A stretch of DNA of 64,000 nucleotides from an uncultured Bacteroides sp. (GTDB lineage: Bacteria; Bacteroidota; Bacteroidia; Bacteroidales; Bacteroidaceae). The DNA is taken from assembly GCF_947632445.1 (NCBI RefSeq), contig NZ_CANRPM010000011.1:1593-65592 (forward strand). The letters run 5' to 3'. The translations under genes and the position numbers were made by a program. The notes below the pieces were generated by a model, which was not told the origin of the DNA, did not search any database, and saw only the letters and a list, made by a program, of their open reading frames with translations. Of this stretch, positions 3,254-57,622 are shown piece by piece. Positions within the stretch are counted from its first letter, which is position 1. Each line of letters begins with the position of its first letter.

Positions 3254-3257
3254 ATTG

Positions 3258-3265
3258 CAAAAGTA
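3258..3265 (-). promoter_or_regulatory. Bacteroidetes sigma-A -7 element (TACTTTTG) upstream of the AAA ATPase
   Basis: Matches TAnnTTTG just upstream of ATG 3253. Confidence 0.55.
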
Positions 3266-3340
3266 ATGAAAACTATCAGTAATCCATTATTCTATTGGAG
3301 AAAAATGGGAAAAGTACCATATTTCTCCAATAGCTTACTC

Positions 3341-3531
3341 TCAACTGGCAAGTGCAAAAATAGCGATTTGTCTGAAGAAAACATTTTTAGGAGAGTCGAA
3401 ATAGAGTTTTTATCTCGGCTGAGTGTTGACTGACTGCACTCCGCTATGGAGGCGATTTCTTTTCCCGGAGTCTTTCTTTGCAGTAAGGCGAAAATTTGCG
3501 ACCTTTGTTGCGAGATTAATCGGTAATACAT
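3341..3531 (-). mobile_element. IS30-family relic: N-terminal HTH plus terminal-repeat-like end, catalytic core missing
   Basis: MYYRLISQQRSQIFALLQRKTPGKEIASIAECSQSTLSR (3531-3412) resembles the IS30 transposase N-terminal HTH; TCAACTGGCAAGTGCAA (3341-3357) resembles IS30 terminal IRs. Confidence 0.65.
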
Positions 3532-3677
3532 AATGCAACACAAAATTAGTTAATCTCATGGAGATTTCGGCCCATGTTTTTTTATGAAACAGGGTAGAAA
3601 AATTAGTCATAATGATTGCTTTTTTCAGCATATTTCATTATTTTTGCCGAAAGCAACAATTAAATTTGTTTAATACG

Positions 3678-7754: not shown

Positions 7755-7764
7755 TTATGAATCG

Positions 7765-7838
7765 TTCAGGCACGGATGATACGGATTTTCGCGGATATAT
7801 GTTTTTCTCCGTGACGCTCCGTGTAATCCGTGCCTGAA
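7765..7838. repeat. REP-like palindrome between convergent genes
   Basis: TTCAGGCACGGAT ... ATCCGTGCCTGAA terminal IR with internal CGGAT/ATCCG sub-repeats. Confidence 0.75.
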
Positions 7839-31510: not shown

Positions 31511-34270
31511 TTACAATCCGTCGGCTACCAAATTGATTTCATCCATAACCAACTCTATCAAGGCTTGGTAGTGTAGTCTGTCTTCCAGGTGTCTTTTTTC
31601 TTCGTCAGGCAACTGTGAATAGTCGTTTTGATAGTTGTCGGAGTTCACTTCGTTCAATACCTCTTTTACATGTTCCAATCCTTTTCTTTTAGTTATCAAG
31701 TCTATCTCTCTCTTGACATCCTGATATAATTCCATGTTGACATAGTTTAAGTATGCCACTTCGCGTGTATCTCCAATGTCAAGACGGTAATGGTTGATGG
31801 GATTTCCTCTCTGACGAGACCTAATCCAATATTGTTGGCTTCCGTCATCGTAATGAATCAAACCGAAAATGAAGCCCTTCACCCAAAATTCTATTTTATT
31901 AGGTCCAACATCGGGCGGTGTGGGCATTAAATTAAACTTTTCACTTCTCATACGTAAGTTCCATTGTTCATCAATGTATCCGGCCAATGAGGTTTGAATG
32001 TATTCACGCTGATAGATTGTCGTGTTACCCACTGCATATATGGGAGCGCAACAACTCATAATCAGGATTAAAATTCTATTCTTTTCTTCTGTTGAAATGT
32101 AAGTAGGTTCGTGGCCGCTTTCAACAAACAAATTGGCCAATTTCGTTTCTTTAAAAATGTTTCTGTTGGCATCTGCACATCCAACCAAAATAAATTTGAC
32201 CAACGGTAGCGGCTGATTTACATACCCTTGTGTGTTTATTTTCCAAAGAGGGGATGCCATTACTTTTACCTTTTCGATGTAACTATTTGCTTTTTCAGGT
32301 GTTTGTTCGTAAACTTTCTGAAGATACTCATTGATGGTTACGGCAAAGGCTGCGCGTACTTCTTGGGTTTCGTTTGCCCAACGGCGCATTACTTCAAATA
32401 ATTCTAGATTATTCAAGCCAATCAGACTTTTTATATCTTGGTGTTTCAAAAAATCCAAAATGTCCTGTGCAGTGGCTTCACGTGTGCGATTTACTTCTTC
32501 GCCATGAATGTAGACTTGGAAATTTAAATCACGTTGTGCATCCCTTTGTATTTTCAAATTGGCAGAATCCATGTCTTTTGCAACTTGCTGGAGTGTGTTT
32601 TCAAGTGCATTTATTTTATTTTGCCACACCCCTATGCTTTGTCTTAAGTGGGCATACACTTGAATAGCATAGCTTCGGCGTATTGATTCTCGAATAGCTT
32701 CCACGTGCATACGGATTTCTTCGCTTAAGGCTTCTGCCGCATCCTTGTCTATGGGACTGAATAGTGCGGGTAATCCGCTATTTTTTATTGCATTGACCGC
32801 TTCGTTCCAAGGCTGATGATTATTCACTCTCTCGTCAAATTGTTTCTTCTCATTGTCCATTTCCTCTTCACAGGTTTGTATGGCAGTTAACAAGCTTGAC
32901 AAGAAATCGGCAATATCTCCTACGCCATTTTGTGTGTTAATGTTATTGGTAATGTATTTATCTAACTCCTTGTCAACTGTGCATATCTTGTTGTCATACG
33001 TTTTTCTAATAGTAGACTCGGTTGCAGCCTTTATGTAATTGTCAATCTGATTTTGGTCACTGTCTTTACTTAGATCAATGGGAGAGAATGGGCAAATAGG
33101 ATCCAAGAGGCTGTCTATGAGCATGTCCGCATTGTGTTCTTGTACAGCCACATTGGGGTCTGACATCCATGTCAAAGCATTTTGTAAGCCGTTATTATTT
33201 TTCTTGCAAAGTTCATCGCATGCGCTCTTTATCATGGAATATCCGATGTAATCGCCCACTGCCTGAGAATCGTATATTAGTTCTGCACTACCCATAGACG
33301 CCGTCCATGCTTTTTTATTGAGTACTTCGAAAGCTTTCATATGCTTTGCCACATTGTCCATTGGCGATGTGATACCTTGTCCCAATTGGTTGCTGGGCAA
33401 AAACATGCTTCGGCCTATCGAATCGGTTAATTCATTGATACTTTGAAAGCAGACGCCTTTTTCGTTCGTGTTATTGATGATATAGGCATATCTAATATTG
33501 GGGTCCAATGTATTAATCCTGTCGAACCCGAAATCTAAAGGATTTTGATTATCGGCCGGTAAATGGAACAGGTAGTCCAGTTCCTGTAAGAAACCGAATG
33601 CGTTGTTATGTACATTGAACGACGGTACGCCAGGAGCCATTCTGCGAAAGACGTCGGGCATCACAATCCACGGATAGATACGGTAATTAGTACCTAATGC
33701 CTGAGCCGCATTTGACACCAACATCAGGATATCAAGCATCATACCACTTCCTGTTCCACCGGCTGTACTGCCTACTACATTGATAATGGTAGGCCATTCG
33801 TTCCCATTGCTGTCATAGTCATATTGAAAACGATAATCAACAGGTAGAGGTGCGGCAATATTGCTTATCTTTTGTTGGACTTGATTTTGGATATGTTTGG
33901 CGTTGAATCGTGCGATGAATCGACCATTAGAACGTACCTGCCCTGCTCCATCAGCTGATATGGTTTTCAGCGAGTCTGTATTAACCGAGGGAATCCACGA
34001 ATACAAATTACGATTGTTTGTGTAGACTTGCAGAGCCATAGGTACGGAACAAACCAACAACTCATTATGATCTAATGCTACCTTGCCATGCTTTGCCGAA
34101 ATTATAAATTTGTTCTTCGCCTGCCCATCGGTATCAATAGCTAAGAAGCCTATCATCTTGGGGATTTCTCCATAGGTATCCAAAAAACATTGTTTGGTGC
34201 GGAGAATTGCCATTACACCGGTGCCACCTAATCCGATGTAGAGTGTCTTTGTAATTTTTGTTGTTGCCAT
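31511..34270 (-). CDS. Tubulin/FtsZ-like GTPase with long helical C-terminal extension (Tubulin_2 type)
   Basis: KTLYIGLGGTG, FLAIDTD, GAGQVRSNGR, tubulin signature VGSTAGGTGSG, NAF..L.EL; 919 aa. Confidence 0.88.
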   Translation of the reverse strand: MATTKITKTLYIGLGGTGVMAILRTKQCFLDTYGEIPKMIGFLAIDTDGQAKNKFIISAKHGKVALDHNELLVCSVPMALQVYTNNRNLYSWIPSVNTDSLKTISADGAGQVRSNGRFIARFNAKHIQNQVQQKISNIAAPLPVDYRFQYDYDSNGNEWPTIINVVGSTAGGTGSGMMLDILMLVSNAAQALGTNYRIYPWIVMPDVFRRMAPGVPSFNVHNNAFGFLQELDYLFHLPADNQNPLDFGFDRINTLDPNIRYAYIINNTNEKGVCFQSINELTDSIGRSMFLPSNQLGQGITSPMDNVAKHMKAFEVLNKKAWTASMGSAELIYDSQAVGDYIGYSMIKSACDELCKKNNNGLQNALTWMSDPNVAVQEHNADMLIDSLLDPICPFSPIDLSKDSDQNQIDNYIKAATESTIRKTYDNKICTVDKELDKYITNNINTQNGVGDIADFLSSLLTAIQTCEEEMDNEKKQFDERVNNHQPWNEAVNAIKNSGLPALFSPIDKDAAEALSEEIRMHVEAIRESIRRSYAIQVYAHLRQSIGVWQNKINALENTLQQVAKDMDSANLKIQRDAQRDLNFQVYIHGEEVNRTREATAQDILDFLKHQDIKSLIGLNNLELFEVMRRWANETQEVRAAFAVTINEYLQKVYEQTPEKANSYIEKVKVMASPLWKINTQGYVNQPLPLVKFILVGCADANRNIFKETKLANLFVESGHEPTYISTEEKNRILILIMSCCAPIYAVGNTTIYQREYIQTSLAGYIDEQWNLRMRSEKFNLMPTPPDVGPNKIEFWVKGFIFGLIHYDDGSQQYWIRSRQRGNPINHYRLDIGDTREVAYLNYVNMELYQDVKREIDLITKRKGLEHVKEVLNEVNSDNYQNDYSQLPDEEKRHLEDRLHYQALIELVMDEINLVADGL

Positions 34271-34289
34271 AATGATACGGATTAATAAT

Positions 34290-35195
34290 TTATTGTAATA
34301 GGATTGTCAATTTGTTTCCATCTCTCTGTTGAATGTTTATCCTGGTGTAGATATTTGCCGACGTAGGGGAAATTTGATAGGCGGAACTATTGTATCGAAC
34401 GATTATCTTCTTTCCATTCGCCTTGGGTATGAGCGTAATGGGGGATGTGAAATTTAGGTCGTTCTTGTAAAGTACCTTTCCAATCCAAATGCGGTTCCAG
34501 ATGGATTGCTTTTTTATATGTTGTCCTAATATTACTTTTCTGCAACCTCCCATGCGCAGTGTTGTTATTGGATTATGGGGAATAATAAGATTCTTTACTA
34601 CAGTATGACGGAATGTTGGATAGACTATTCTTCTCAAAAATACAAACCAAATGAGAATACTACAAAGAATAATGGCATATAAAATGAGTACCGTCTTTTT
34701 TAATGGATTCATCCGTTTGGTAAATGTAAACTGCCATTTGAAAATCTTTGTTTCGTTTCCGTTACTTATCTCAGTATCGTTTATTCGGTCAAGGTTATGG
34801 CTTGTGATAGTCAGATAACCACCTTTTGTTCCTTCCTTAGCTTGTGGAATGCAACGCATTTTCAATATATTTTCCGTATAGTCGCTTTTTATATCAAAGT
34901 GTGGATATTGTAATTTCATACCGTCAATATAGATTTCAAACAACTGCATATCAAGTGGCTGATCTTTTTCGTCGGTGAAATATAGGGTGGCATGACTGCT
35001 TGCCTCCTTGGCTTCCTTGTTGAATTGATATCGGATAGTTCTCTCGATAAAAGTTGTATCAGCATCTGTCCACCAAAATGAACTTGTATAGACTGACTTT
35101 CCCAATGGGGTAGATGGTACCGTTTCTTGGAAAGAACAGGAAAATACAAGACTAAGTAATAGTGCTACGCTTGTTAAACTGATGAAGTTTTTCAT
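34290..35195 (-). CDS. Lipoprotein-signal protein with an additional internal TM helix
   Basis: MKNF...LLLSLVFS-C lipobox; TM VLILYAIILCSILIWFVFL followed by RR; basic beta-rich C-terminal domain. Confidence 0.75.
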   Translation of the reverse strand: MKNFISLTSVALLLSLVFSCSFQETVPSTPLGKSVYTSSFWWTDADTTFIERTIRYQFNKEAKEASSHATLYFTDEKDQPLDMQLFEIYIDGMKLQYPHFDIKSDYTENILKMRCIPQAKEGTKGGYLTITSHNLDRINDTEISNGNETKIFKWQFTFTKRMNPLKKTVLILYAIILCSILIWFVFLRRIVYPTFRHTVVKNLIIPHNPITTLRMGGCRKVILGQHIKKQSIWNRIWIGKVLYKNDLNFTSPITLIPKANGKKIIVRYNSSAYQISPTSANIYTRINIQQRDGNKLTILLQ

Positions 35196-36238
35196 TCGAT
35201 AGATATTTTGAGAGTTCTTTCTTTTTTGTTAATGCAATGTATGGTGAGTTGTTCCGGGGTTATGAATGTGTATGGGCTTCCCCCTTCGTAATTAACCCTT
35301 AGATGAAGATCGAATTGTTCGGGAATATTCTGTGTATTCTTCAAACATAAAGAGAAGTGTATCTTTTCTTGATAGATGTCCATTGGAGCTGCCTGTAAAG
35401 TACAATATGGATTTTCTTCCAGATTTAAGTTAATCTTACCTTTAATATCCCGATAACTGCCAGACAGGGGAATGGTTAGATCCTTGTCGTCTCGCAAGTT
35501 ATAGGCTACTTGAGTCGGCATATTGCATATTTGGATAGATACATTGGCATCGGGTACTACCCAAAAGTTGGTTTGTTTGTCTATTGCTTTGCGGATATAA
35601 GGGACATCTGCAGCAGGATGTACTAAAATATAGAAACCATAAGAATATTGACCGGGATTTTGTGACTTTCGGTTCCAATCATTCAGTTCGGCCTGTAAGT
35701 CGCCAACTTCGTTGACGCCGTCGGTAAAGAGGAATAAGTAATTCACATATCCGTCCCGACACATGTCGTGATATTTGCGGATAGCATCCACAAGGTTCGT
35801 TTTATTGTCACCTACCGGTTTATAATGGAAGTTAGTAATGAAGTCTTTTAGTTGTGATTTCCCTTCAGGAGTGGCTTTTACACATACTGGGTCAAGAGTA
35901 CGCGTATAAAACGGTATGAGTATGATTTCGTTCATCGCATCATCTTCTATGTTTTCAATACTTTCTATCAACTTATATTTCAAAGATCTCCAGAGTCCAT
36001 TACCTGAAGATATAAAGGGAAGCGGGGAGTTATCCAAGTCTTTTTCTCCTTGTCTCTGGGGTAACAGTGATCCGCTTACATCCCAAAGAAAAATTCTGCG
36101 TTCGTTCAGTTGGGTATAAGCTACAGTGGGCATCAAAAAGACGAAAAAGAAGAATAACAGGATGGAGAAAGAATGTGATGTGTTGAAACATTCTCTTTCT
36201 TGAGATCCTTTAAGATGATGATATACGCGGTTTGTCAT
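35192..36238 (-). CDS. Exported von Willebrand factor A domain protein
   Basis: Hydrophobic signal; MIDAS elements IFLWDVSGS, KTN, LFLFTDG; beta-rich C-terminal domain; stop overlaps next start. Confidence 0.85.
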   Translation of the reverse strand: MTNRVYHHLKGSQERECFNTSHSFSILLFFFFVFLMPTVAYTQLNERRIFLWDVSGSLLPQRQGEKDLDNSPLPFISSGNGLWRSLKYKLIESIENIEDDAMNEIILIPFYTRTLDPVCVKATPEGKSQLKDFITNFHYKPVGDNKTNLVDAIRKYHDMCRDGYVNYLFLFTDGVNEVGDLQAELNDWNRKSQNPGQYSYGFYILVHPAADVPYIRKAIDKQTNFWVVPDANVSIQICNMPTQVAYNLRDDKDLTIPLSGSYRDIKGKINLNLEENPYCTLQAAPMDIYQEKIHFSLCLKNTQNIPEQFDLHLRVNYEGGSPYTFITPEQLTIHCINKKERTLKISIE

Positions 36239-36312
36239 GGCATCATTTATATGTCAATCAGCAGACTCCCCACACTGAATTATGTTATGGAATATTTCAG
36301 GTTGCCATATAC

Positions 36313-36530
36313 AAAAAAGCGCGGGAATCTGTACTTGTTACTCGTCCCACGTATCAAGGCCTTCGCATTGCCCACTCAGTCAAAACGAGCAACGCAGAAG
36401 CCCACGCAGATATGTATAACAACTTCCTGCACATCTTCTATAAAGTACAGGAAGGGTATAAACATATCCCGCAGACATCTACTGTTGCTTTGTTTTAGAC
36501 TGAGTTCAAAGTTTGCGAAGTTTTGATACG
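36313..36530 (-). ncRNA. Structured 5' leader (long nested hairpin with poly-U tail) upstream of the vWA/tubulin operon
   Basis: Nested IRs: CGTATCAA..CTTCGCA / TTGCGAAG..TTGATACG; ACTCAGTC..AAAAC.AGCAAC / GTTGCT..GTTTTAGACTGAGT; GATATGT / ACATATC; CTTCCTG / CAGGAAG; tail TCCCGCGCTTTTTTGTAT on minus strand. Confidence 0.6.
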
Positions 36531-36575
36531 TCAAAAACAAAACGTAAAGTAAACGTCTTTTTTATATATGTTTGT

Positions 36576-36636
36576 TTCCATACATTCGCAACTATAGTTG
36601 AGAACTTGTATGGAACGCAGTGACAAATGTATGGAA
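36576..36636. promoter_or_regulatory. 40-bp palindrome plus third half-site TGTATGGAA
   Basis: TTCCATACA-TTCGCAACT-AT-AGTTGAGAA-CT-TGTATGGAA (36576-36615); TGTATGGAA again at 36628-36636. Confidence 0.45.
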
Positions 36637-36788
36637 TAATTTTCTAATAGTAATGAGTTTTATAAAAAATGTAGATGCCTTTTTCAGATTTTTCCTTTTT
36701 ATGTGTCTATATTTGTATTTCTTTTGACTGGATAAGGGATTTTTTCAGGAACTATTGATGTGAACGGAAAACGTGTTTATATAAAAAT

Positions 36789-36874
36789 GGCACGCAGATA
36801 GCGCAAATGAATCAGATGACCGCAGATTAAATATATCTGTGCAAATTTTGTTCCATCTGTGTTATCTGTGTGCC
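36789..36874. repeat. REP-like palindrome of the same family as 7765-7838
   Basis: GGCACGCAGATA ... TATCTGTGTGCC with internal CAGAT/ATCTG repeats. Confidence 0.65.
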
Positions 36875-36909
36875 AATATCTTTTTCTCAGCACATAACCC
36901 ATCTGTGGG

Positions 36910-37734
36910 CTACAGAATAGCTTTCAGCTGCCCGGCCATCTGTGTCTGCACTTCCTGTGCGGCCTTGCGGCTGGCGGCGGCGAAGCTTTCCGTCTTATCC
37001 ACGTAGATGATACCTCGGCTGGAGTTGACAATGAGGCCGCACTCCTTTGTCATGCCATACTTGCAGACTTCTTCCAGCGAGCCACCCTGTGCACCTACGC
37101 CCGGTACGAGCAGGAAGTGGTTGGGTACAATCTTACGGATGTCCTCGAACATGCGGCCTTGTGTGGCACCCACTACGTACATCATGTTCTCGTCGTTGGC
37201 CCATTCCTGTGATTTGCGGAGTACTTTCTCGAAGAGGCGTTCGCCATCTTTATCTTCTGTCAGCTGGAAGTCATGCGAACCCTTGTTGCTGTTCAGTGCC
37301 AGCAGGATGACCCACTTGCCTTCGTAGGTGAGGAACGGTGTTACGCTGTCTTCACCCATGTAGGGAGCCACAGTCACGGAGTCGATGTTCAGTTCCTCGA
37401 AGAAGGTGCGGGCATACATAGCCGACGTGTTGCCAATATCGCCGCGCTTGGCGTCGGCAATGATAAATTGGTCGGGATAGTTCTGTTTGATGTAGTTCAC
37501 CGTCTTCTCGAAGGCCATCCATCCCTTCACGCCCATGCTCTCGTAGAAAGCCAGGTTGGGCTTGTAGGCGATACATAGGTCCTGCGTTGCGTCGATGATA
37601 GCCTTATTGAAAGCGAAGATAGGATCTTCTTCTTTCAGTAGATGTTCGGGAATTTTCTTGATGTCCGTATCGAGTCCTACGCAGAGGAACGATTGTTTGC
37701 GCTTGATGTTTTCAAAGAGTTGTTGCTTGTTCAT
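36910..37734 (-). CDS. pyrF: Orotidine-5'-phosphate decarboxylase
   Basis: [55 protein letters not shown]. Confidence 0.97.
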
Positions 37735-48553: not shown

Positions 48554-50074
48554 TCATTTTGGCACACTCCCATCATCCGACGCTTTCACCCAGTACCCGT
48601 TGCCGTACCGCGTATGCACCCTTCTTCCCATCTGCGCCAGCAGGTGACTGAACGCCGTGCACGAACAGCCCCTTAACGCTGCCGGGTTCTTCTTCTTCAA
48701 GGCGGCGTAGATGTCTGCCGCAGACATCAGATGCGCACCCTCCTCACTTGCTTCGGCAAACTCGAAGCAGCTGCCAATGAGTTCCTCGGCGGGCTTCACG
48801 CGGTAGAACGGACGGTTCGCCGCCTGGATTTCCGCCTCCTCCGCCTTGCTGAACCAGCAGCGTCCGCCGTTATTCAGCTCGTGCAGGAGCTGGGCGTACA
48901 GTTGGGCATGGTCGAGGGGAGTCGTACAGTCGATGGCCCGCTCCACTTCCACACAGATAAAACGTCGGCTGCCCGACAGGTCGGTCAGCAGGTCACGGCG
49001 GTTGCTCGTGCCGATGAACGAGGCGATTCTTGGCAAAGCCTCCGCCGAACGGCGGTAGGCACGGCGCACGCGCAGGTCTTCCATCTGCATCAGGTTCTTC
49101 AGCTGCGGCAGGCGGGAGGCAGGCAGGCGGTCGAACTCGTCGAGGTTGATCAAACCGTAGGACGCCAACTTGTTTTCCGCCGATGAGGCGTTGGTCAGGT
49201 CGAAGCTCTCGGTGAAATAGTCGCGCAACTCTTGGGGGAGCAGCATCCGGCAGAAGGTGGACTTGCCCAATCCCTGCGTGGTGCTGATGAGGAGCGGGGC
49301 CACACTGTTGGCACGACGGCCCCGGTCGCCCGTGCCTGTCCACTGGGCGGTGACGGCCAGCATCCAGCGGTGGAAGGAACGTATCCAAACCCCGTTGCCG
49401 GAGACCCGCTTTGCCAGGTCTTCCACCCGGTCCTTGCCGTCCCATTCAGGCAGGTGCTTGAAGTACAGGTCGAACGGATGGTAAGCCCTTACGTGGTCGG
49501 ATTCCACGTATCGCTTCACGTCCCTGTCCCAGCAATCCACTCCGTCCTCCATAGCACCGAGGGCGATGCCGTTCAGGACACGGCTATCCACGGGCGTATA
49601 AAGAAGGCGGTGCGAATCGTCCGCAGCCTCCGTGTCGAGGCGGGCGCACTCCGTGCGCTCCGTCAGCAGGTTGTAGCGGAAGGCGTAGTGCAGCTTCAGG
49701 TAGCGGGTCAGGCGCTGCATGATCCGGCGTTGCCTGGAGTCCTTCCGGTCGACGGCCTCTTCAGCTTGCTCCTTGTCTTTGTCTTTCAACGTATCCGTCT
49801 CCGGTTCGGCCTCTTCCTGCTCTATCCATTCCGTCACCTCGTTCCGCCCGTTCAGGCTGAAGATGCGCTTGTCGGGGCGGGGTGTCTGGGGCGTCCAGGT
49901 CAGTTGGACGGTGAACTCGCCGTCGCCCGTGACGAGGAAGACTTCGCCGCCCGGCAGGCGGCCGCAGTATTCGTTGAGGTTCGACAGAAGTTCCCTGTAG
50001 GAGTTGGCGGGAGCCGGCAGGGGCGCTTCCCGGCGGGAAGTGAACAGATCTCTTAGCTGGTAAATCAGGTTCAT
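48554..50074 (-). CDS. VirE/VapE-like P-loop ATPase with winged-helix-like C-terminus
   Basis: YAFRYNLLT, YHPF..YF..LP.WDG.DR, RWML, Walker A QGLGKSTFC, Walker B LINLDEFD, RRAY, SFIGTSN, TDLSGSRRF. Confidence 0.88.
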   Translation of the reverse strand: MNLIYQLRDLFTSRREAPLPAPANSYRELLSNLNEYCGRLPGGEVFLVTGDGEFTVQLTWTPQTPRPDKRIFSLNGRNEVTEWIEQEEAEPETDTLKDKDKEQAEEAVDRKDSRQRRIMQRLTRYLKLHYAFRYNLLTERTECARLDTEAADDSHRLLYTPVDSRVLNGIALGAMEDGVDCWDRDVKRYVESDHVRAYHPFDLYFKHLPEWDGKDRVEDLAKRVSGNGVWIRSFHRWMLAVTAQWTGTGDRGRRANSVAPLLISTTQGLGKSTFCRMLLPQELRDYFTESFDLTNASSAENKLASYGLINLDEFDRLPASRLPQLKNLMQMEDLRVRRAYRRSAEALPRIASFIGTSNRRDLLTDLSGSRRFICVEVERAIDCTTPLDHAQLYAQLLHELNNGGRCWFSKAEEAEIQAANRPFYRVKPAEELIGSCFEFAEASEEGAHLMSAADIYAALKKKNPAALRGCSCTAFSHLLAQMGRRVHTRYGNGYWVKASDDGSVPK

Positions 50075-50564
50075 AAGCGGATGCGGTTGGTTCTTATTTT
50101 TTCCTGTAAAGATACAACATTTTAAGGCCTTTGTCAAGTCCTCCGGCTGCGTCCGGGGCTGCCTTTAGCGTCTTTTATATCTTTCACCGGAAACAGGGGA
50201 TGTGCCCCGGTGAAGTTTCACCGGAACGGGCTGACTGTAAGCGGGTTGCGGTGAAAGCAGGAAACAAGCCGTTCGGGGCATCGCACACAAATGTTCTGCG
50301 GTATTCCCATTCTCCGTGAAAGAACTTTCACGCCTTCACCCCATCTTTCACACTATCTCGCTCGTTGACAGGCGTTTGCCGGCCCGTGAAACCGTGAAGG
50401 CGGAAAACGGGAAACTTTTTTTCTTGCCGCCTTGCCCGCCTTGCCCGCCTGCTTCAGCGGAATCATGTGATGCGGAAGGTCGTATTTTCTGAAGGGAAAC
50501 ATAGAGTTCCGGGCAAAAGCGGGACAGTTTCGGGAGGGAACCGGGCCGCCTTTTTCCGGGTTCC

Positions 50565-50665: not shown

Positions 50666-50985
50666 CGTCGTTGGCGTGCGCCTGCCGGCTTCTTCACGGA
50701 CAGAACATGGTGAAATATTGTTAGTTTGATGCGTAATGTTGACAGCTACAGAAGTTTGCCATTTCAAAATGGCTACGACATTGTTTTAACAGGAGCTTAT
50801 CCCGGACTCACATTAAATAATATTTCGATAAAATATGATAGCGTTTACTTTGATATATCAAAAGATGTGCATATTTTTGTGCATAATTGTGAATTGTGTA
50901 ACAAACAAAACACTGTAAATAATTTTAAAGAGGAAAAAGAAAGAGATATTGACATATTAAAATAAGGCGTTAGCATTTATTCTGT

Positions 50986-51135
50986 GATTCTGAAACTTCG
51001 ACACTTTCAAAAAATCACTCTACGGAATAAAGTTGATGCTCACGTGTTATACACGTGGGCTTTATTCCATATATTGAGTGATAGGTAGTCGAAGACCTCA
51101 GAATCAGTATCGGAAATAGTCCACGTTTTTTGTAT
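50986..51135 (+). ncRNA. Structured 5' leader upstream of the type III R-M operon
   Basis: Nested IRs GATTCTGA..CTTCGAC / GTCGAAG..TCAGAATC; ATCACTC / GAGTGAT; GGAATAAAG / CTTTATTCC; CTCACGTGT-TAT-ACACGTGGG; tail GTCCACGTTTTTTGTAT. Confidence 0.6.
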
Positions 51136-51179: not shown

Positions 51180-53783
51180 ATGAACACTAATCCATTCCAA
51201 ATTCTTACGCCGCAGGAGCGATGGCGACCGGAAAACGCCGACAGTGCCACAGCCCCACTTGTAGAGAAAATCCGTGTGGCGGTTGCCGAATGGCGCAAAG
51301 CGGGTTATCCGCACACGAGCGAAACATCGTTGGCATTGCTTCGCTTTTGGTTCGACACGCCGCATCCCGATAATTTCCGATTCTTTTTCTCGCAGCGGGA
51401 AGCCATTGAGAGCATCATCTATCTTTACGAGGCTGCCGAAGCCCGCGACAAATACCAACTGATTGCACAATTCGATTCGAGCGGCGAACTTACGCCCGAT
51501 GCCTTTGATGAGAACTGGACGCGGTATGTAGTGAAAATGGCGACGGGTGCGGGAAAGACGAAAGTCGCCGCGTTGGTTATCGTATGGTCTTATTTCCATA
51601 AGTTGTACGAACCCGACAGCATCCTGTCAAAAAATTTCCTGTTTATCGCTCCGAATATCATTGTCTTTAATCGGCTGCTCAAAGATTTCGAGGGTCTGCG
51701 AATGTTCTTTGACGAACCGTTCCTGCCCGACGATGACTATTGCGACCGCTATTGGCGTAGCGATTTTCAGCCGACACTTCATTTGCAGGACGATGTTCAT
51801 GGCATATCCGAATCGGGCAACATATTTCTAACGAATATACACCGCGTCTATGTGTCAGACCCTGCAAGGTTGTCGGTCGAGGAAACCTTTTTAGGCATCA
51901 AGCCAAAACCCGACGCAGATACCGCCAGCGGAATAGATTTGGGCAAGTTGCTCCGCAGCGGTCAGATAAAGGATTTAGTTGTCGTGAATGATGAGGCGCA
52001 CCACATCCACGATGAGGACTTGCAATGGCACAAGTGTATCAGCGACATACACAACCGCCTCAAATTGAGATACGGCAACGGGCTTTCTTTGCAGGCGGAT
52101 TTCACGGCAACCCCGAAACATGCCAATGGCGCAATCTTCGTGCAGACGATATGCGACTATCCGCTGGTCGAGGCTATTCGGCAGCAGGTTGTCAAGTCAC
52201 CGACCCTGCCCGATGAGGCTTCACGCCTGAAATTGGAGACACAGGATAGTGTCGAATTTGTGGAGCGTTATCGCAGTTTTATCGAGCTGGGTGTGGTGGA
52301 GTGGAAAAAGCAATACGACGCCCTCAACGGCGTAAAGAAACCCGTGCTGTTCATAATGACGACCAACACAAGGGAGGCGGATGCCGTAGCCGATTTCCTG
52401 CAACGCGAATATACTTTCCTCAACAATGCCGTACTGACGATTCACACCAACAAGAACGGCGATGTGGTCGATTCGGGCAAAAGGGATAAAGAGGAATTGA
52501 TGATGCTCCGCACGGCTGCCGATGAGATAGACAGGGACACTTCACGATACAAGGTCATCGTTTCGGTGTTGATGCTCCGCGAGGGCTGGGATGTGCGGAA
52601 TGTTACGACGATTGTCGGTTTGCGACCGTTCAAGGCGAAATCGAATATCCTGCCCGAACAGACCATAGGGCGCGGTCTGCGCAAGATGTTCGACCTCAAC
52701 ACGCCCGAAGAATTGGTGGTTATCGGCACACGGGAGTTTTTGGAGTTTGTAGAAACACTCAAAGATGAGGGTGTAGAGTTTGAATATGCACCTATGGGCG
52801 CAGATACACAGGTAAAGGGTAATATCAGCGTGTCGATCGATAAAGATAAAGATGCCGATGCACTCGATATTCGGATTCCGCAGATGCGCCCAAAGATAAT
52901 CCGTGAACAAAAGAACCTCGCAGAGTTGAACGTCGCAGATTTTGAGAGCGAACAGGCTCCGTTTAGGCACTATTCCGACGATGAGATAAAAGAGATTGTA
53001 TATCGAGATATAGAGGGCAAAATCACGCATACGACAATTTTCAGCCATAGCCATACTCCCGACTATCGCAATGTACTGACGGCTATTACGCATTCGATTC
53101 TGCGCGAAGCCCGCCTGCTGAACGGACACCATATTCTCTATCCGAAAGTCGAAAGTTTCATTAAGTATCGGCTATGGGGCAGGGAGGTCGTTTTGTCTGA
53201 TCCGCAGACGCTCCGCAATCTGTCTGAGGCAACGGCTATCCGCATTGTTTACGAAACATTCAAAAAGGCTATCTCCCGTCTCACTATCGTAGAACGTACA
53301 GATATGACAAATCGCGGCTATGCCTCTGTTGCAAAGAGCCGTCCGATTGTCGTCAAGCACCAACCCTATATAGCCGCGCCAAAAAAATCGCTCTTTGACA
53401 AGGTTATCGGGGACAGCGAATACGAATTGCAGTTTGCGGCGGCAATGGAAAAATGGGGAGATGTGGTAGCCTATGCAAAGAATACGGAAACAGGTGTGGG
53501 TTTCAGCATCGAATATCAGAACTCGGAGGGGCGGATAGCTGCCTACTACACCGATTTTTTAGTCCGATGCAGCAACGGTCGATGCTATGCCGTCGAACTG
53601 AAAGGCGTTGAGGATGAAGATGTCCGATTGAAGCGGGAACGGTTGCGACAATGGTGTGTAGATGTAAATAGGGTACAAGAGCAGCAATGGTCGTCGCTCT
53701 ATATTCTGCAAAAAGAATGGGATAAGTACCGCGACAAACTGCGGACTTTTGCCGATGTCGTAGAACTGTTTGAAGTAAAATAA
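51180..53783 (+). CDS. res: Type III restriction endonuclease Res subunit
   Basis: KMATGAGKT, NDEAHH, TATP, MLREGWD, QTIGRGLR, C-terminal PD-(D/E)xK YYTDFLV...VELKG. Confidence 0.9.
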   Translation: MNTNPFQILTPQERWRPENADSATAPLVEKIRVAVAEWRKAGYPHTSETSLALLRFWFDTPHPDNFRFFFSQREAIESIIYLYEAAEARDKYQLIAQFDSSGELTPDAFDENWTRYVVKMATGAGKTKVAALVIVWSYFHKLYEPDSILSKNFLFIAPNIIVFNRLLKDFEGLRMFFDEPFLPDDDYCDRYWRSDFQPTLHLQDDVHGISESGNIFLTNIHRVYVSDPARLSVEETFLGIKPKPDADTASGIDLGKLLRSGQIKDLVVVNDEAHHIHDEDLQWHKCISDIHNRLKLRYGNGLSLQADFTATPKHANGAIFVQTICDYPLVEAIRQQVVKSPTLPDEASRLKLETQDSVEFVERYRSFIELGVVEWKKQYDALNGVKKPVLFIMTTNTREADAVADFLQREYTFLNNAVLTIHTNKNGDVVDSGKRDKEELMMLRTAADEIDRDTSRYKVIVSVLMLREGWDVRNVTTIVGLRPFKAKSNILPEQTIGRGLRKMFDLNTPEELVVIGTREFLEFVETLKDEGVEFEYAPMGADTQVKGNISVSIDKDKDADALDIRIPQMRPKIIREQKNLAELNVADFESEQAPFRHYSDDEIKEIVYRDIEGKITHTTIFSHSHTPDYRNVLTAITHSILREARLLNGHHILYPKVESFIKYRLWGREVVLSDPQTLRNLSEATAIRIVYETFKKAISRLTIVERTDMTNRGYASVAKSRPIVVKHQPYIAAPKKSLFDKVIGDSEYELQFAAAMEKWGDVVAYAKNTETGVGFSIEYQNSEGRIAAYYTDFLVRCSNGRCYAVELKGVEDEDVRLKRERLRQWCVDVNRVQEQQWSSLYILQKEWDKYRDKLRTFADVVELFEVK

Positions 53784-53812: not shown

Positions 53813-55861
53813 ATGGCTGATATTAGAAAAAACGAGATGATAGAACTTATCCGACAGGGTAAGAAGTTGGACAAGTCGATGATATACGACCTTTTTGCGG
53901 GGGACGATGAGGAAGTGTTCCTGTTTTGGAATGGACGCAACGAGCAGGTGACGAATGTTGCGCTGCCGTTTCACAGCATCGAACAAATCGACGAACCGCG
54001 AGCCGAACACAATGCGGAACTTGCGATATTCGATACCCGGGGACGCCAACTCAAAGGCTGGACGAACAAACTGATATGGGGCGACAACAAATTGGTCGTC
54101 TCCTCGTTGCTGAACGGTCCGATGCGCCGTGCGATAGAGGCTGTCGGCGGAATGAAACTGGTTTATATCGACCCGCCGTTTGCCGTCGGATCGGACTTCG
54201 GCTTCGATATTGCCATAGGCAATGACAGCGTAACCAAGAAACAGAGCGTTATCGAAGAAATTGCCTATCGGGACACGTGGGGACGGGGTATTTCCTCTTA
54301 CTTGTCAATGATGTACGAGCGCTTGCGCCTGATTCACGACTTGTTAGCAGATGACGGCTCAATCTATGTGCATTGTGACTGGCGGGTTTCAAGTGTTTTG
54401 CGGTTAATGTTGGATGATGTCTTCGGAAAAGGTAATTTTAGAAATGAAATAGTATGGTGCTACACAGGCCCTCAAAGGTCAAGAAATTGTTTCCCTAAAA
54501 AGCACGATTCTATACTATTTTACTCAAAATCCATAGAATCAATATTTAATCCTCAACGGGTTAAGCATAAATCGGGACTCCATGGAGTCGGAGGATTCGG
54601 ATTTAAGGGTTCAGATACAGCAAATACAGTACTGAAGGAATTAGAAGAGAAAGGGAAATTATTAGAAGATTGGTGGCCTGATATTTCAACAGTTGGTCGT
54701 CTAATAAATGAATTTGAGGGTTATCCAACACAAAAACCTGAAGCCCTGTTAGAGCGCATTATCAAGGCATCGAGCAACGAGGGCGATTTGGTCGGCGATT
54801 TCTTTTGCGGAAGCGGCACAACTGCTGCCGTCGCCGAAAAACTCAACCGCAAATGGATTGCTTGCGACTTGGGACGTTTTGCCATACATACTACTCGCAA
54901 ACGACTTATCGGCGTACAGCGCGAACGCTGCAAGGCGGGTCAGGACTATCGCGCATTCGAGGTGCTGAACCTCGGCAAATACGAACGGCAGTTCTTTATG
55001 GATGATATGTGTAGGTCTATTGGAAATATCCGTAATGAAGAGCAATATATCAATCTGATTCTCGAAGCCTACAAGGCGAAACGCATCGACAACACACCCC
55101 TGTTGCATGGCGTGAAGGGCGACCGCTTCGTGCATATCGGTGCGTTGGATATGCCCGTAACGCAAACCCGCCTTGACGACCTGTTCGAGGAATGCCGCAA
55201 GCAAATGGTGACGGCGGTCGATGTGCTCGGCTTCGAGTTCGAAATGGGACTTACCCCGCAATATATCCAGAAATTAAAGGAGCAGGGTGTCGATTTCAGG
55301 CTGAAATATATCCCGCGCGATGTGTTCGACCGTCGGGCCGTAGAACGGAACCAGGTGCATTTTTACGATGTCGCCTATCTCAATGCACAATGCAAGGTCG
55401 TCGGTCGCCGGCTGACCGTAAGCCTGTCGGATTTCGTTTCCAACTACACGCAGGACGATTTGGACGACGTCGAGGTCAAGGCAGGGAAGTCGCGTATCGT
55501 TATCGACGGCGGCATGATTATCAAAAAAGAAGTCAGCAAAGAGGGCATCTTGAGCGAACAGATATTGACGGAGAATTGGCACGACTGGGTCGATTACTGG
55601 GCTATCGACTACAACTACGAGGACAAGCGCGAAATTATCTGCACTACGGACAAGGAGACGGGCGAGGTACATGAGAAGTGGACGGGCAACTACATCTTTG
55701 AGAACGAATGGCAGAGTTTCCGCACGAAGCAGTCGCCGACGCTCGAACTGACCGCTCCGTCGCACCAGTACGACCGTCCGGGCCGTTATAAAATCATGGT
55801 GAAAGTCGTGGATATTCTCGGCATTGATACCAGCAAAGTGATAGAAATCGTAATACCGTAA
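53813..55861 (+). CDS. mod: Type III modification methyltransferase (beta class) with long C-terminal extension
   Basis: LIWGDN, VYIDPPF, GSIYVHCD, YPTQKPEALLERII, DFFCGSGTT. Confidence 0.92.
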   Translation: MADIRKNEMIELIRQGKKLDKSMIYDLFAGDDEEVFLFWNGRNEQVTNVALPFHSIEQIDEPRAEHNAELAIFDTRGRQLKGWTNKLIWGDNKLVVSSLLNGPMRRAIEAVGGMKLVYIDPPFAVGSDFGFDIAIGNDSVTKKQSVIEEIAYRDTWGRGISSYLSMMYERLRLIHDLLADDGSIYVHCDWRVSSVLRLMLDDVFGKGNFRNEIVWCYTGPQRSRNCFPKKHDSILFYSKSIESIFNPQRVKHKSGLHGVGGFGFKGSDTANTVLKELEEKGKLLEDWWPDISTVGRLINEFEGYPTQKPEALLERIIKASSNEGDLVGDFFCGSGTTAAVAEKLNRKWIACDLGRFAIHTTRKRLIGVQRERCKAGQDYRAFEVLNLGKYERQFFMDDMCRSIGNIRNEEQYINLILEAYKAKRIDNTPLLHGVKGDRFVHIGALDMPVTQTRLDDLFEECRKQMVTAVDVLGFEFEMGLTPQYIQKLKEQGVDFRLKYIPRDVFDRRAVERNQVHFYDVAYLNAQCKVVGRRLTVSLSDFVSNYTQDDLDDVEVKAGKSRIVIDGGMIIKKEVSKEGILSEQILTENWHDWVDYWAIDYNYEDKREIICTTDKETGEVHEKWTGNYIFENEWQSFRTKQSPTLELTAPSHQYDRPGRYKIMVKVVDILGIDTSKVIEIVIP

Positions 55862-56440: not shown

Positions 56441-57622
56441 ATGAATGAAGATAGAAAAACAATAACCGATTTTGACGAGTATATCCGCCAGGGAGAGCCG
56501 GAGAAAAGGGAAAAGGCGTATATCTGGCAGACTGCCATAGGTCTGCAGGCTGTTGATGGGCTTACGACTTCTGATTACCTCAATGAAACAGCCAAAAGGC
56601 ACATTGAGGGAGAAATCGACATTGATGAAGTTCGTGAACTCATAAAGACTTATTACCGGTCAAAGTCCAACCGGGAGCCTGATGATGATGAGAAACGAGA
56701 GGCTGACGGGGTATCAGCGAATATATCCAAAATCCTGTCAAATCGTACACTGGATTTCAGTACCCAGGGATACATTGCGCTACATCGCCGAATCTTTGCC
56801 GGCATATTCAAGCATGCAGGCAGAGTTCGTGACTACAATATCACGAAAAAAGAGTGGGTGCTGGAGAATGAAACGGTAAACTATCTGAATTGGGAGGATT
56901 TGCGCAGGGCATTGGACTATGACATTGAACAGGAGCGCAATTTCAGCTATAAAGGCATTACCGCCGATGCCATGATTTCCCACATTACCCGTTTCGTATC
57001 GGGTCTTTGGCAGATTCATGCGTTTGGGGAAGGAAATACCCGCACGACGGCGGTATTCACGATTCAGTATCTCCGCTCCATTGGATTCGACATCACCAAC
57101 GATATGTTTGCAAAACACTCGTGGTACTTTCGAAATGCACTGGTGCGCGCAAACTACAAGAACGCTTTGAAAGGCATAGACTATACTCCTATTTATTTGG
57201 AGCGATTCTTCCGCAATCTGCTGTTGGGTGAAAAATGGGATTTGCGCAATCGTTATCTGCATATAAACCCGACGGAAGAATGGAAAGTTCAACCGAATCT
57301 TGCTGACAGGACAAGTGCAGGACAAGCGCAGGACAAGTGCGCGGCAATTGATGATACACTGCAGGACAAGCTGCATACAAACAACCCGAATATTGAAAAA
57401 TTGGTGCGAATGCTTGGTGAACAGCAAATGTCTGTAAAACAGATAATGGAAGCACTTGGATTGAAAGGGCGCGATAACTTCCTTAATCTCTACTTGAAGC
57501 CATCCATATCTAAAGGCTATGTACGTTTGCTGTACCCTGACTCACCGCGCCATTCACGCCAGAAATATCTTCTGACAGTCAAAGGGCTGGCACTTTATCT
57601 GGAAATAATTGGCAAACAATAA
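56441..57622 (+). CDS. Fic-family protein with VbhA-like N-terminal antitoxin domain and C-terminal HTH
   Basis: WQTAIGLQAVDGL N-domain; Fic motif HAFGEGNTRT; C-terminal LGLKGRDNF...P.SPRHSRQKY. Confidence 0.9.
   Translation: MNEDRKTITDFDEYIRQGEPEKREKAYIWQTAIGLQAVDGLTTSDYLNETAKRHIEGEIDIDEVRELIKTYYRSKSNREPDDDEKREADGVSANISKILSNRTLDFSTQGYIALHRRIFAGIFKHAGRVRDYNITKKEWVLENETVNYLNWEDLRRALDYDIEQERNFSYKGITADAMISHITRFVSGLWQIHAFGEGNTRTTAVFTIQYLRSIGFDITNDMFAKHSWYFRNALVRANYKNALKGIDYTPIYLERFFRNLLLGEKWDLRNRYLHINPTEEWKVQPNLADRTSAGQAQDKCAAIDDTLQDKLHTNNPNIEKLVRMLGEQQMSVKQIMEALGLKGRDNFLNLYLKPSISKGYVRLLYPDSPRHSRQKYLLTVKGLALYLEIIGKQ
57307..57339 (+). repeat. Three tandem 11-bp units CAGGACAAG(T/C)G inside the Fic gene
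   Basis: Units at 57307, 57318, 57329; a fourth copy at 57362. Confidence 0.85.

Follow-up and report, generated by a model that had tools for sequence, protein, structure and literature searches.

What does a long hairpin do in the 670-nt gap between pyrF and a three-gene tubulin-like operon of a Bacteroides genome, and how is it related to similar elements in front of an unrelated restriction-modification (R-M) operon on the same contig? The gap is located in a stretch of 64,000 nucleotides from an uncultured Bacteroides sp. (NCBI RefSeq assembly GCF_947632445.1, contig NZ_CANRPM010000011.1, positions 1,593 to 65,592 of the forward strand); this whole stretch of DNA is referred to as the window, and all positions are given relative to its first letter. 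A first-pass annotation, which was made from the sequence alone, had placed a hairpin leader of about 220 nt with a switchable tail at 36313-36530 on the minus strand, had assigned it to the tubulin operon and had read it as an attenuator or antisense target. Our analysis indicates that the element is quite likely a leader RNA that attenuates transcription in cis. It belongs to a family with many copies in the Bacteroidales and probably gates the transcription of the accessory operons (defence, surface proteins, capsule) located downstream of it.

A rod-forming leader and its homologues

The minus strand of 36300-36545 folds at -95.1 kcal/mol (z = -7.84; none of 200 dinucleotide shuffles is as stable) into a nested rod spanning approximately 36341-36541. 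The plus strand of the same interval reaches only -74.1 kcal/mol; the minus strand is 21 kcal/mol better because many of its pairs are G-U, which would be C-A mismatches on the plus strand. This asymmetry indicates that the fold belongs to RNA made from the minus strand and does not represent a palindrome in DNA. The largest internal loop in the minimum free energy (MFE) rod measures 8/6 nt and is found near its base. The stretch 36313-36419 is conserved and common to 20 to 26 contigs per run in bird, manure, chicken and other gut metagenomes, and a search pattern taken from it (GCGTGGGY-N4-8-GCGTTGCTCGTT) matched at least 120 Bacteroidales loci in species-representative genomes. The homologues are represented by alignment A2 (61 sequences, full core) and by covariance model R1, which was built from 112 sequences and covers only the 3' domain (103 positions), the most conserved stretch of the element in metagenomes and metatranscriptomes. 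The window copy comprises the following parts:

36624..36631, minus strand: promoter -7 box TACATTTG, an exact TAnnTTTG, 65 nt from the core
36576..36615, minus strand: 5' leader hairpin (-15.8 kcal/mol, z -3.0); this copy is without the complement S0 described below
36311-36559, minus strand: core of about 250 nt
36541..36557, minus strand: hairpin H1 (GACGU-UUACUUU-ACGUU), overlapping the 5' strand of helix P1
36530..36542, minus strand: segment 1, UUUUGUUUUUGAC; its partner is either segment 2, giving the 5'-domain hairpin, or segment 4, giving helix P1 as an extension of the rod
36341..36541, minus strand: rod with helices P1-P9 (MFE), its 5' half pairing with its 3' half
36313..36416, minus strand: conserved 3' domain (R1 107.1 bits, E 3.5e-27)
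36400-36407, minus strand: GCGUGGGC within the 3' domain, complement of UCCCGCGC
36384-36393, minus strand: segment 3, GUUGCUCGUU, within the 3' domain
part of 36313..36416, minus strand: GGGCAAUGCGAAGGCC loop region of the 3' domain
36337-36350, minus strand: segment 4, GUGGGACGAGUAAC, within the 3' domain
36319-36326, minus strand: terminator 3' arm UCCCGCGC, directly before the U-tract
36313-36318, minus strand: U-tract UUUUUU
36258..36278, minus strand: downstream site D (GGGGAGUCUGC at 36261-36271) in a small hairpin, UCAGUG/UGCUGA

The hairpin leader proposed for the minus strand is thus borne out by the fold, and so is its position before the tubulin operon, whose open reading frames (ORFs) at 35192-36238, 34290-35195 and 31511-34270 (the last with a Tubulin_2 domain) all lie downstream. 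The span of 36313-36530 proved too narrow, as the unit extends from the promoter box at 36624-36631 to the complementary site at 36258-36278. Nor is the leader specific for the tubulin operon: it does lie there, but it belongs to a multi-copy family found before unrelated genes.

Across the family the unit has a regular anatomy. In 86 of 105 loci an exact TAnnTTTG, the -7 consensus of Bacteroidetes sigma-ABfr promoters (PMC7366714), precedes the core by 30-140 nt, compared with six in a control window, and the distance between box and core is narrowly distributed (median 66 nt, interquartile range 62-70 nt). In the window, transcription would start at about 36617, a few nucleotides downstream of the box. 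The box is followed by a variable 5' leader stretch of about 58 nt, and about half of the loci carry S0, a 7-12-nt complement of the core motif GGGCUUCUGCGU or AUCGGCGUGG (at least 7 nt in 48 of 112 loci), which follows the variants of the core (CUUCG/CCGAAG, CUUUCU/GCAGAAAGCC, UCUCU/GCAGAGACC). The core itself measures about 250 nt from GGCGUUUAC to the U-tract in alignment A2. The first ORF after the U-tract is encoded on the same strand in 86 of 95 loci and an opposite-strand gene comes first in only two; in 58 of the 86 the ORF starts within 130 nt of the U-tract (median 62 nt). The family is strand-specific, with scores of 75-113 bits in sense and 22-33 bits in antisense orientation and a gap of at least 50 bits.

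The genes on either side of the leader are unrelated between loci. Clustering of 90 upstream ORFs revealed no family larger than two and no conserved upstream gene, and a tblastn search with five window proteins against all 120 loci yielded just two unrelated prfA matches and no constant association of the leader with the tubulin operon or pyrF/prfA. The first downstream ORFs, 83 of 84 of which were scanned, match BspA/LRR adhesins, LytTR proteins, PDC-S31/DUF2971, methyltransferases, radical-SAM maturases and glycosyltransferases as well as AbiH, HerA and LeoA-type dynamin, and UpxY antiterminators account for three of the 83. Predicted surface lipoproteins were found downstream too, many of them with an acidic stretch right after the lipobox cysteine.

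A leader peptide is not among the conserved features: there is no ATG ORF of at least six codons in 41 of 107 loci, and the ORFs of the other loci differ in frame, position and sequence. What is conserved, across the whole order, is about 100 nt of sequence in loops and bulges, including the unpaired stretches of the H1 loop, GGGCAA and AACGGUAGAUG. The apical part of the rod (approximately 36420-36470) differs in length and sequence among homologues, and metagenome contigs either skip it or vary within it. The most conserved stretch of the 5' arm (36470-36483 on the minus strand of the window, AGCAACAGUAGAUG; family consensus AGCAACGGUAGAUG) contains CGGUAG in the consensus and CAGUAG in the window copy. 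CGGUAG is also the core of the enterobacterial ops/JUMPStart element read by RfaH; the likeness is only a lead.

Among the matches listed, the titles of the loci name Prevotella, Bacteroides, Phocaeicola, Parabacteroides, Alistipes, Muribaculaceae, Paludibacteraceae and others. The element spans at least six family-level groups, and it is also carried on plasmids of Phocaeicola dorei and P. vulgatus. Cultured carriers include Phocaeicola sartorii DSM 21941, Parabacteroides distasonis and P. dorei CL06T03C03 (plasmid pBdorCL06T03-4). Carriage by phages is rare, with two of 50,697 phage records and four viral-contig loci in IMG/VR (2.9 million contigs). Canonical copies also occur on contigs (L010, L013, L025, L027, L055, L115, L118) whose bins are named Oribacterium, Pseudoflavonifractor, Firmicutes, Staphylococcus, Clostridiales and Eubacteriales. 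Most likely these contigs were binned wrongly, and the element could serve as a marker of such errors. The species of locus L009 was not present in the chicken-gut runs examined.

Competing folds, proposed switch and transcription

According to the alignment, several helices that exclude each other are all kept paired across the homologues. The rod together with P1 is paired in 86.6% on A2, compared with 36-45% when the partners are slid by 1-3 columns, and it shows 343 two-sided changed cells versus 122 +/- 14 in shuffles. Pairing amounts to 94.6% in P1, to 97.3% in P2 (compensatory changes at 8 of 8 pairs) and to 98.4% in P3 (at 5 of 7 pairs), and hairpin H1 is paired in 98.3% in the 61 sequences, its pair 4-20 changing from G-C to A-U in eight of them. 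The first-pass annotation had suggested a covariance model built from homologous leaders; R1 is such a model for the 3' domain, and the rod helices do show many compensatory changes. Applied to the 61 sequences of A2, RNAalifold chose the fold of the 3' domain unprompted. This fold consists of the clamp B1 (GCGUGGG with CCCRCGC, 99.3% paired), of B2 (GUUGCUCGUUC with GGACGAGUAAC, 98.7%) and of B3 (GGGC with GCCU, 98.4%), and the changes on the free strands of B1-B3 are all transitions after which the bases still pair, by Watson-Crick or wobble geometry. The local terminator T, a small hairpin (GYGGGA/UCCCRC), is paired in 86% and contains four compensatory pairs, with U-A changed to C-G in 10 sequences and G-C changed to A-U in eight. 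The 5' half finally forms a hairpin of UUGUUCUUGAC with GUCAAGAACAA, which is capped by GAAAn/nUUUC around CUUCGCA.

These structures compete for the same nucleotides. T overlaps P1 and the base of P2, with P1 and lower P2 using the 5' arm of T, and the 5' arm of clamp B1 is taken up by P8. When the halves are folded separately, the 5' half adopts the hairpin of segments 1 and 2 in all 61 sequences and the 3' half adopts the B1/B2 clamp fold in 39 of 61. In constrained folding, the rod with P1 and the rod with the terminator differ by a median of -0.1 kcal/mol (sd 5.3); at equilibrium, the stability of the two-domain fold is lower by about 7 kcal/mol. The tail UCCCGCGC, followed by U6 (36313-36326), stands between the promoter and the same-strand ORF, as is generally the case for attenuators with an intrinsic terminator, and a conserved alternative pairing sequesters an arm of this terminator. 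The first-pass annotation had described the tail as complementary to an upstream motif beside a U-tract; this pairing (GCGUGGGC/UCCCGCGC, then U6) is kept in 99.3% across homologues. The switchable tail is real in the sense that its pairings are conserved, and it has more states than had been thought, with four segments and the small local terminator hairpin, and with an additional pairing of the tail to a site downstream of the terminator.

We propose the following mechanism, in which the assignment of the terminating form and of whatever tips the balance is inferred. A sigma-ABfr promoter would start a transcript of about 300 nt. Within its core, four segments are complementary to one another, namely UUUGUUCUUGAC (segment 1), GUCAAGAACAAAGCAAC (segment 2), GUUGCUCGUUC..GAC (segment 3) and GGGACGAGUAAC (segment 4). 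The outer clamp GCGUGGG/CCCRCGC ends right at the U-tract. In the OFF state, pairing of 1 with 2 and of 3 with 4, together with the clamp, would produce a 5' hairpin and the 3' domain, and the last helix abutting the U-tract would act as terminator; alternatively, the small local hairpin GYGGGA/UCCCRC might terminate. In the ON state, pairing of 2 with 3, extended by pairing of 1 with 4, would generate the long rod, which would occupy both 5' partners of the terminator 3' arm (UCCCRCGC) and let the polymerase read into the operon. As to the order of events, the 5' hairpin 1:2 presumably forms first, segment 3 would invade it from the free GCAAC toehold to give the rod helix 2:3, and segment 1 would thereby be freed to close P1 with segment 4. 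If this exchange is too slow, or if H1 or a bound factor, for example, weakens P1, the 3' arm would be captured by segment 4 or by GCGUGGG and transcription would stop at the U-tract. After read-through, a site approximately 40 nt past the U-tract would pair with the terminator loop and 3' arm.

This downstream site D, complementary to the terminator loop and 3' arm, is found 22-52 nt after the U-tract in two-thirds of the loci. In the window, GGGGAGUCUGC is complementary to ACAGAUUCCC (duplex -16.2 kcal/mol); it is separated by 42 nt from the U-tract upstream and by about 25 nt from the start codon downstream (about 20-35 nt in the family). D covaries with the terminator loop in a locus-specific manner: the mean duplex energy is -13.1 kcal/mol for a locus's own arm and site, versus -10.6 kcal/mol with the arm of another locus (p 5e-11) and -8.7 kcal/mol with shuffled downstream sequence (p 4e-24), and arm and site occur in matched variants such as CAGCGACCC/GGGUCG, CGGAUUCC/GGAAUCCG and GAUACCC/GGGUGUC. 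D is often found in the loop of a 5-10-bp hairpin; stems of at least 5 bp are present in 66% of loci versus 44% with shuffled flanks, which gives this placement modest support. The terminated leader might kiss the hairpin in the 5' untranslated region (UTR) of its own mRNA and thereby provide a second, locus-specific layer of control.

The missing leader peptide, the near-equal energies of the competing forms and the conserved unpaired nucleotides in loops and H1 point to control by a factor or by kinetics and not by a ribosome. The input would then be a trans-acting factor or polymerase kinetics, such as pausing or the action of NusA or NusG-type factors. More tentatively, and with considerable doubt, one may regard the leader as the cis element of an order-wide regulon, in which one trans input (a dedicated RNA-binding protein or NusG-type antiterminator, an alarm molecule, or polymerase speed) reads the same RNA of about 250 nt at 10-20 places per genome. 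Such an input would jointly switch transcription of the variable accessory genome of gut Bacteroidales on or off, including R-M, abortive infection and tubulin-like/vWA-like conflict systems, capsule loci and surface adhesins.

Transcription of the family is evident from public RNA data. In two true metatranscriptomes the conserved core reaches depths of 2,400-7,800, compared with about 460 in metagenomes of similar size, values that are sums across many contigs and indicative only. Two small mouse-gut metatranscriptomes match one of the P. sartorii loci (L072) exactly, with the following depths:

positions before 1363: no coverage
5' half of the core: 42-72
1706-1929, past the terminator and D hairpin: 20-30
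body of the UpxY-like ORF: 5

At the other P. sartorii locus (L109), the long 5' UTR has a depth of 25-35 and the ORF one of 4.4. The leader of L072 is covered well above its ORF, as attenuation predicts. The downstream RNA contigs start directly 3' of the D hairpin (1684-1706 in L072, approximately 6495 in L109), which hints at processing or a second 5' end there. The attenuator architecture envisaged at the outset is thus supported by strand specificity, promoter box, same-strand ORF, exclusive helices and metatranscriptome depths; a role as antisense target is conceivable.

Further copies and neighbouring genes

The first-pass annotation had stated that the same elements recur upstream of the unrelated R-M operon, and a diverged copy does precede the type III Res/Mod genes. 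A scan of the window with R1 gave a single other candidate at 51044-51132 (plus strand; 18.8 bits, E about 0.008). This copy could only be recognized with the covariance model; a blastn search of the window for a second strong copy returned just 12-nt chance matches, including one at 9414. The features of this locus and of the tubulin-like operon are:

50872..50879, plus strand: promoter box TATTTTTG of the second copy, matching TAnnTTTG as read from the sequence
50964..51131, plus strand: second leader copy, diverged and shortened (R1, rod fold, helices by eye)
51180-53783: Res (Pfam ResIII)
53813-55861: Mod (Pfam N6_N4_Mtase)
35192..36238, minus strand: first gene of the tubulin-like operon, 348 aa, with a DVSGS motif and no Pfam match
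34290-35195, minus strand: second gene of the tubulin-like operon, 301 aa
31511-34270, minus strand: third gene of the tubulin-like operon, 919 aa, Pfam Tubulin_2 (1e-43)

The second copy folds into a rod of -61.3 kcal/mol (z -5.9). Inspected by eye, it keeps P2 (UGAUUCUGA/UCAGAAUCA), P3 with both sides changed (CUUCGAC/GUCGAAG), P4 (AUCACUC/GAGUGAU) and an apical hairpin. The long-range pairing ACGUGGGC:GUCCACGU ends at U6, and its outer pair is changed from G-C to A-U. About 15 nt upstream of its promoter box, at 50840-50856, AGCGTTTACTTTGATAT resembles the start of the core, GGCGUUUACUUGA, and could be the remnant of an older leader copy. The R-M operon is flanked by a VapE-like/DUF3874 gene (48554-50137, minus strand) and by a Fic-family gene (56441-57622), which suggests that it sits in a mobile or defence island.

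More than one copy per genome is also found elsewhere, namely in P. sartorii (L072, L109), RGIG5030 (L020, L114) and RGIG9696 (L050, L078); no further copies were detected inside the 8-kb loci examined. In runs of an organism referred to as C, a 34-nt core unitig (L119 6989-7028 in runs X40-X43, X44, X50) exceeds its flanks 8-23 times in depth and continues into several different flanks. Since the flanks are single-copy and alternative flanks exist, this indicates many leader copies per Parabacteroides genome, roughly 10-20, a rough figure derived from contig depth. The runs labelled "RNA?" (organism C, mouse/faeces) are DNA-like, with flat depth and 9-kb contigs, and are informative only with respect to the multi-copy core.

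In the tubulin-like operon, the protein encoded at 35192-36238 contains FLWDVSGSL after a hydrophobic N-terminus, a DxSxS motif resembling a metal-ion-dependent adhesion site (MIDAS) of vWA type. The 919-aa protein has its Tubulin_2 domain in the N-terminal part and shows a weak PADLOC match to LeoB (E 0.0026). Together, the pair looks like a tubulin-like/vWA-like conflict system. On the other side of the gap, a second long hairpin is located at 36788-36875, just downstream of the stop codon of pyrF (36910-37734, OMPdecase). It is built from repeated CACAGAU/AUCUGYG motifs. Its plus-strand fold (-43.5 kcal/mol, z -8.7) is more stable than its minus-strand fold (-32.4 kcal/mol), and the bins 36761-36842 reach a depth of 175-290 in contigs from bird and manure metagenomes. 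This hairpin may represent another conserved RNA or repeat family.

Alternative explanations and relation to known leader RNAs

Several points speak against a transcription-attenuation leader or weaken the support for it. Helix P4 is paired in only 77% within its helix group, where the columns are poorly aligned. The search pattern fixed one strand of B1, B2, P6 and P8, which makes two-sided covariation impossible in these helices, and P1 and B2 place identical constraints on segment 4, so that the two are indistinguishable in the data. With respect to transcription, the window's own sequence gave partial word matches only in the RNA runs, and the depth profiles derive from a homologue in two small samples, from strandless contigs whose depth is a poor measure of expression. 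In L072 there is no coverage from the core to 1706, the conserved 3' domain and a 66-nt spacer being unassembled, and the RNA found downstream could therefore stem from processing or a second start instead of read-through.

An unlikely alternative is that the functional product is the terminated RNA of about 300 nt itself, an independent multi-copy family of trans-acting small RNAs (sRNAs) for which read-through is incidental. Such an sRNA might bind a protein, or its terminator loop might form a loop-loop kiss with the D hairpin in the 5' UTR of its own mRNA or of a paralogous one. In favour of this, the terminated species seems to be abundant; D, which is often exposed in a hairpin loop and is found about 25 nt upstream of the start codon, shows covariation with the loop of the terminator; and the downstream contigs of L072 and L109 begin just past D, as would fit cleavage guided by an RNA duplex. 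With FopS/GibS there is a Bacteroides precedent of multi-copy sRNAs that have the same type of promoter and a terminator (PMC11697453). The fixed orientation and short distance to an ORF in 86 of 95 loci and the locus-specific covariation of D argue instead for coupling in cis, and a trans-acting sRNA needs no conserved exclusive folds of near-equal energy. Both functions are compatible with each other, and attenuator-derived sRNAs are known. Still less probable is a constitutive cassette of promoter and terminator without any switching, in which the hairpin damps and insulates horizontally acquired, potentially toxic operons or stabilises their mRNA. The downstream genes are indeed accessory and often defence-related or toxic (R-M, AbiH, HerA, the tubulin-like conflict system), no ligand or factor is known, and the rod alone could serve as an RNA-stability element, but this would leave unexplained why about 100 nt in loops and bulges are conserved throughout the order, why three competing folds are conserved, why the terminated and antiterminated forms have near-equal energies, and why there are long-range complements in S0 and D.

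A function at the level of DNA, as a miniature inverted-repeat mobile element, an invertible promoter segment or a recombination site, seems very improbable to us. Bacteroidales often use invertible promoters for capsule, surface-protein and R-M genes, and the long inverted repeats, the many copies in varied contexts, the presence on plasmids and the occurrence of S0, an inverted repeat of a core motif, in half of the loci would agree with such a function. The pairing, however, requires G-U pairs on one strand, which is reflected in the asymmetry of 21 kcal/mol and in the sense/antisense gap of at least 50 bits; compensatory changes keep the helices while the sequence drifts, whereas recombinase sites are kept by sequence. 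The orientation to the downstream gene is fixed, and no conserved recombinase or transposase gene flanks the element. An inverton was rejected on the grounds that the arms pair through G-U, that the promoter lies outside the repeats, that there is no conserved recombinase and that the DNA runs contain no inversion joints, the only joints being those that skip the variable apical part between homologues. A miniature inverted-repeat transposable element or other dispersed repeat was rejected in view of the fixed orientation before ORFs, the helix-preserving differences, and the mere 18.8 bits shared by the window copies. Equally little credence can be given to a 6S-like rod RNA that sequesters proteins or binds polymerase and is found upstream of genes by chance. 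Such an RNA would share the length of about 200-300 nt, the conserved internal loops and the abundance in metatranscriptomes, and Bacteroidales-1 (RF01693) is similar in its rod shape, abundance, size of about 200 nt and host organisms. There is, however, no match to the Rfam models of 6S (RF00013), 6S-Flavo or Bacteroidales-1 even at E up to 10, the leader lacks a large central bubble, and it is multi-copy and linked in cis to ORFs in fixed orientation; moreover, Bacteroidales-1 already represents the 6S RNA of the Bacteroidales (bioRxiv 10.1101/2024.04.05.588293).

In its mode of action the leader resembles a four-segment attenuator among the known systems that we compared, and it is identical with none of them. 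The comparison with Rfam, where a match to a characterised family would have deprived the element of its novelty, gave no match: cmscan against Rfam 15 yielded none in the whole window at gathering thresholds, and permissive searches with the window region (E up to 10) and with L072 (E up to 5) returned only chance-level matches to microRNAs and fungal sRNAs. Classical four-segment attenuators (trp, his, pyrBI and Bacteroid-trp, RF01692) likewise alternate between 1:2 plus 3:4 and 2:3 pairing, their 3:4 form ends at a U-tract, and they are located between promoter and first gene. In contrast to these, the leader described here has no conserved leader peptide, is about three times longer, carries three additional elements (a helix of segments 1 and 4, the outer clamp and the small terminator T), and occurs in multiple copies before unrelated genes instead of before one biosynthetic operon. 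An attenuator of the leader-peptide (trp/his) type was rejected, as no conserved short ORF extends over segment 1, and the one cmscan match to Bacteroid-trp scored 22.7 bits versus a threshold of 49 and was located outside the core. Riboswitches and T-box leaders share the large conserved fold, the conserved loops, an expression platform with an intrinsic terminator and long-range complements of tertiary type comparable to S0 and D; here, however, there is no Rfam match, the fold is a rod and not a compact multi-helix junction, and the regulated genes share no pathway and suggest no metabolite.

Leaders read by NusG paralogues (ops/JUMPStart-RfaH, opsX-UpxY, LoaP) likewise precede long acquired accessory operons, including capsule operons, and have hairpins close to the start codon. 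Bacteroides UpxY factors act at pause sites in capsule leaders, where the signals are short and locus-specific (PMC11685472). While ops and opsX are short pause signals in non-template DNA, the element described here is an RNA of about 250 nt that is conserved across loci and families and has its own terminator, and most copies are without a linked NusG paralogue. Leaders that recruit such a paralogue usually have it encoded in their operon; here, only 3 of 83 first downstream genes are UpxY-like. FopS/GibS finally share the multi-copy state, the conservation in the Bacteroidaceae, a sigma-ABfr promoter, a Rho-independent terminator and occasional carriage by mobile elements. In FopS RNAs a single-stranded seed at the 5' end precedes the terminator hairpin, the targets in trans are SusC mRNAs, and the family is reported to have been deposited in Rfam (PMC11697453), whereas the leader forms a rod of about 300 nt with competing folds, is fixed before an ORF and has no match in Rfam 15. 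Identity with FopS/GibS was rejected because of this difference in architecture. Searches of the literature by sequence words, of Bacteroides sRNA atlases and of structured-RNA surveys retrieved no description of the element, with subscription journals largely outside the search and a prior description therefore possible; the family is apparently undescribed, a large multi-copy attenuator whose targets belong to the accessory genome instead of one pathway.

Bacteroidales dominate the mammalian gut, and their capsule, surface-protein and anti-phage loci decide about phage susceptibility, immune recognition and competition between strains. These loci are known to be controlled by invertible promoters and by locus-specific UpxY/UpxZ factors. 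If the proposed function is true, one conserved RNA switch would represent a shared layer of control after initiation for otherwise unrelated accessory operons. RNA biology would gain a large attenuator with several states and many representatives, which needs no leader peptide, and the covariance model would provide a sequence handle to find accessory and defence operons of the Bacteroidales in metagenomes.

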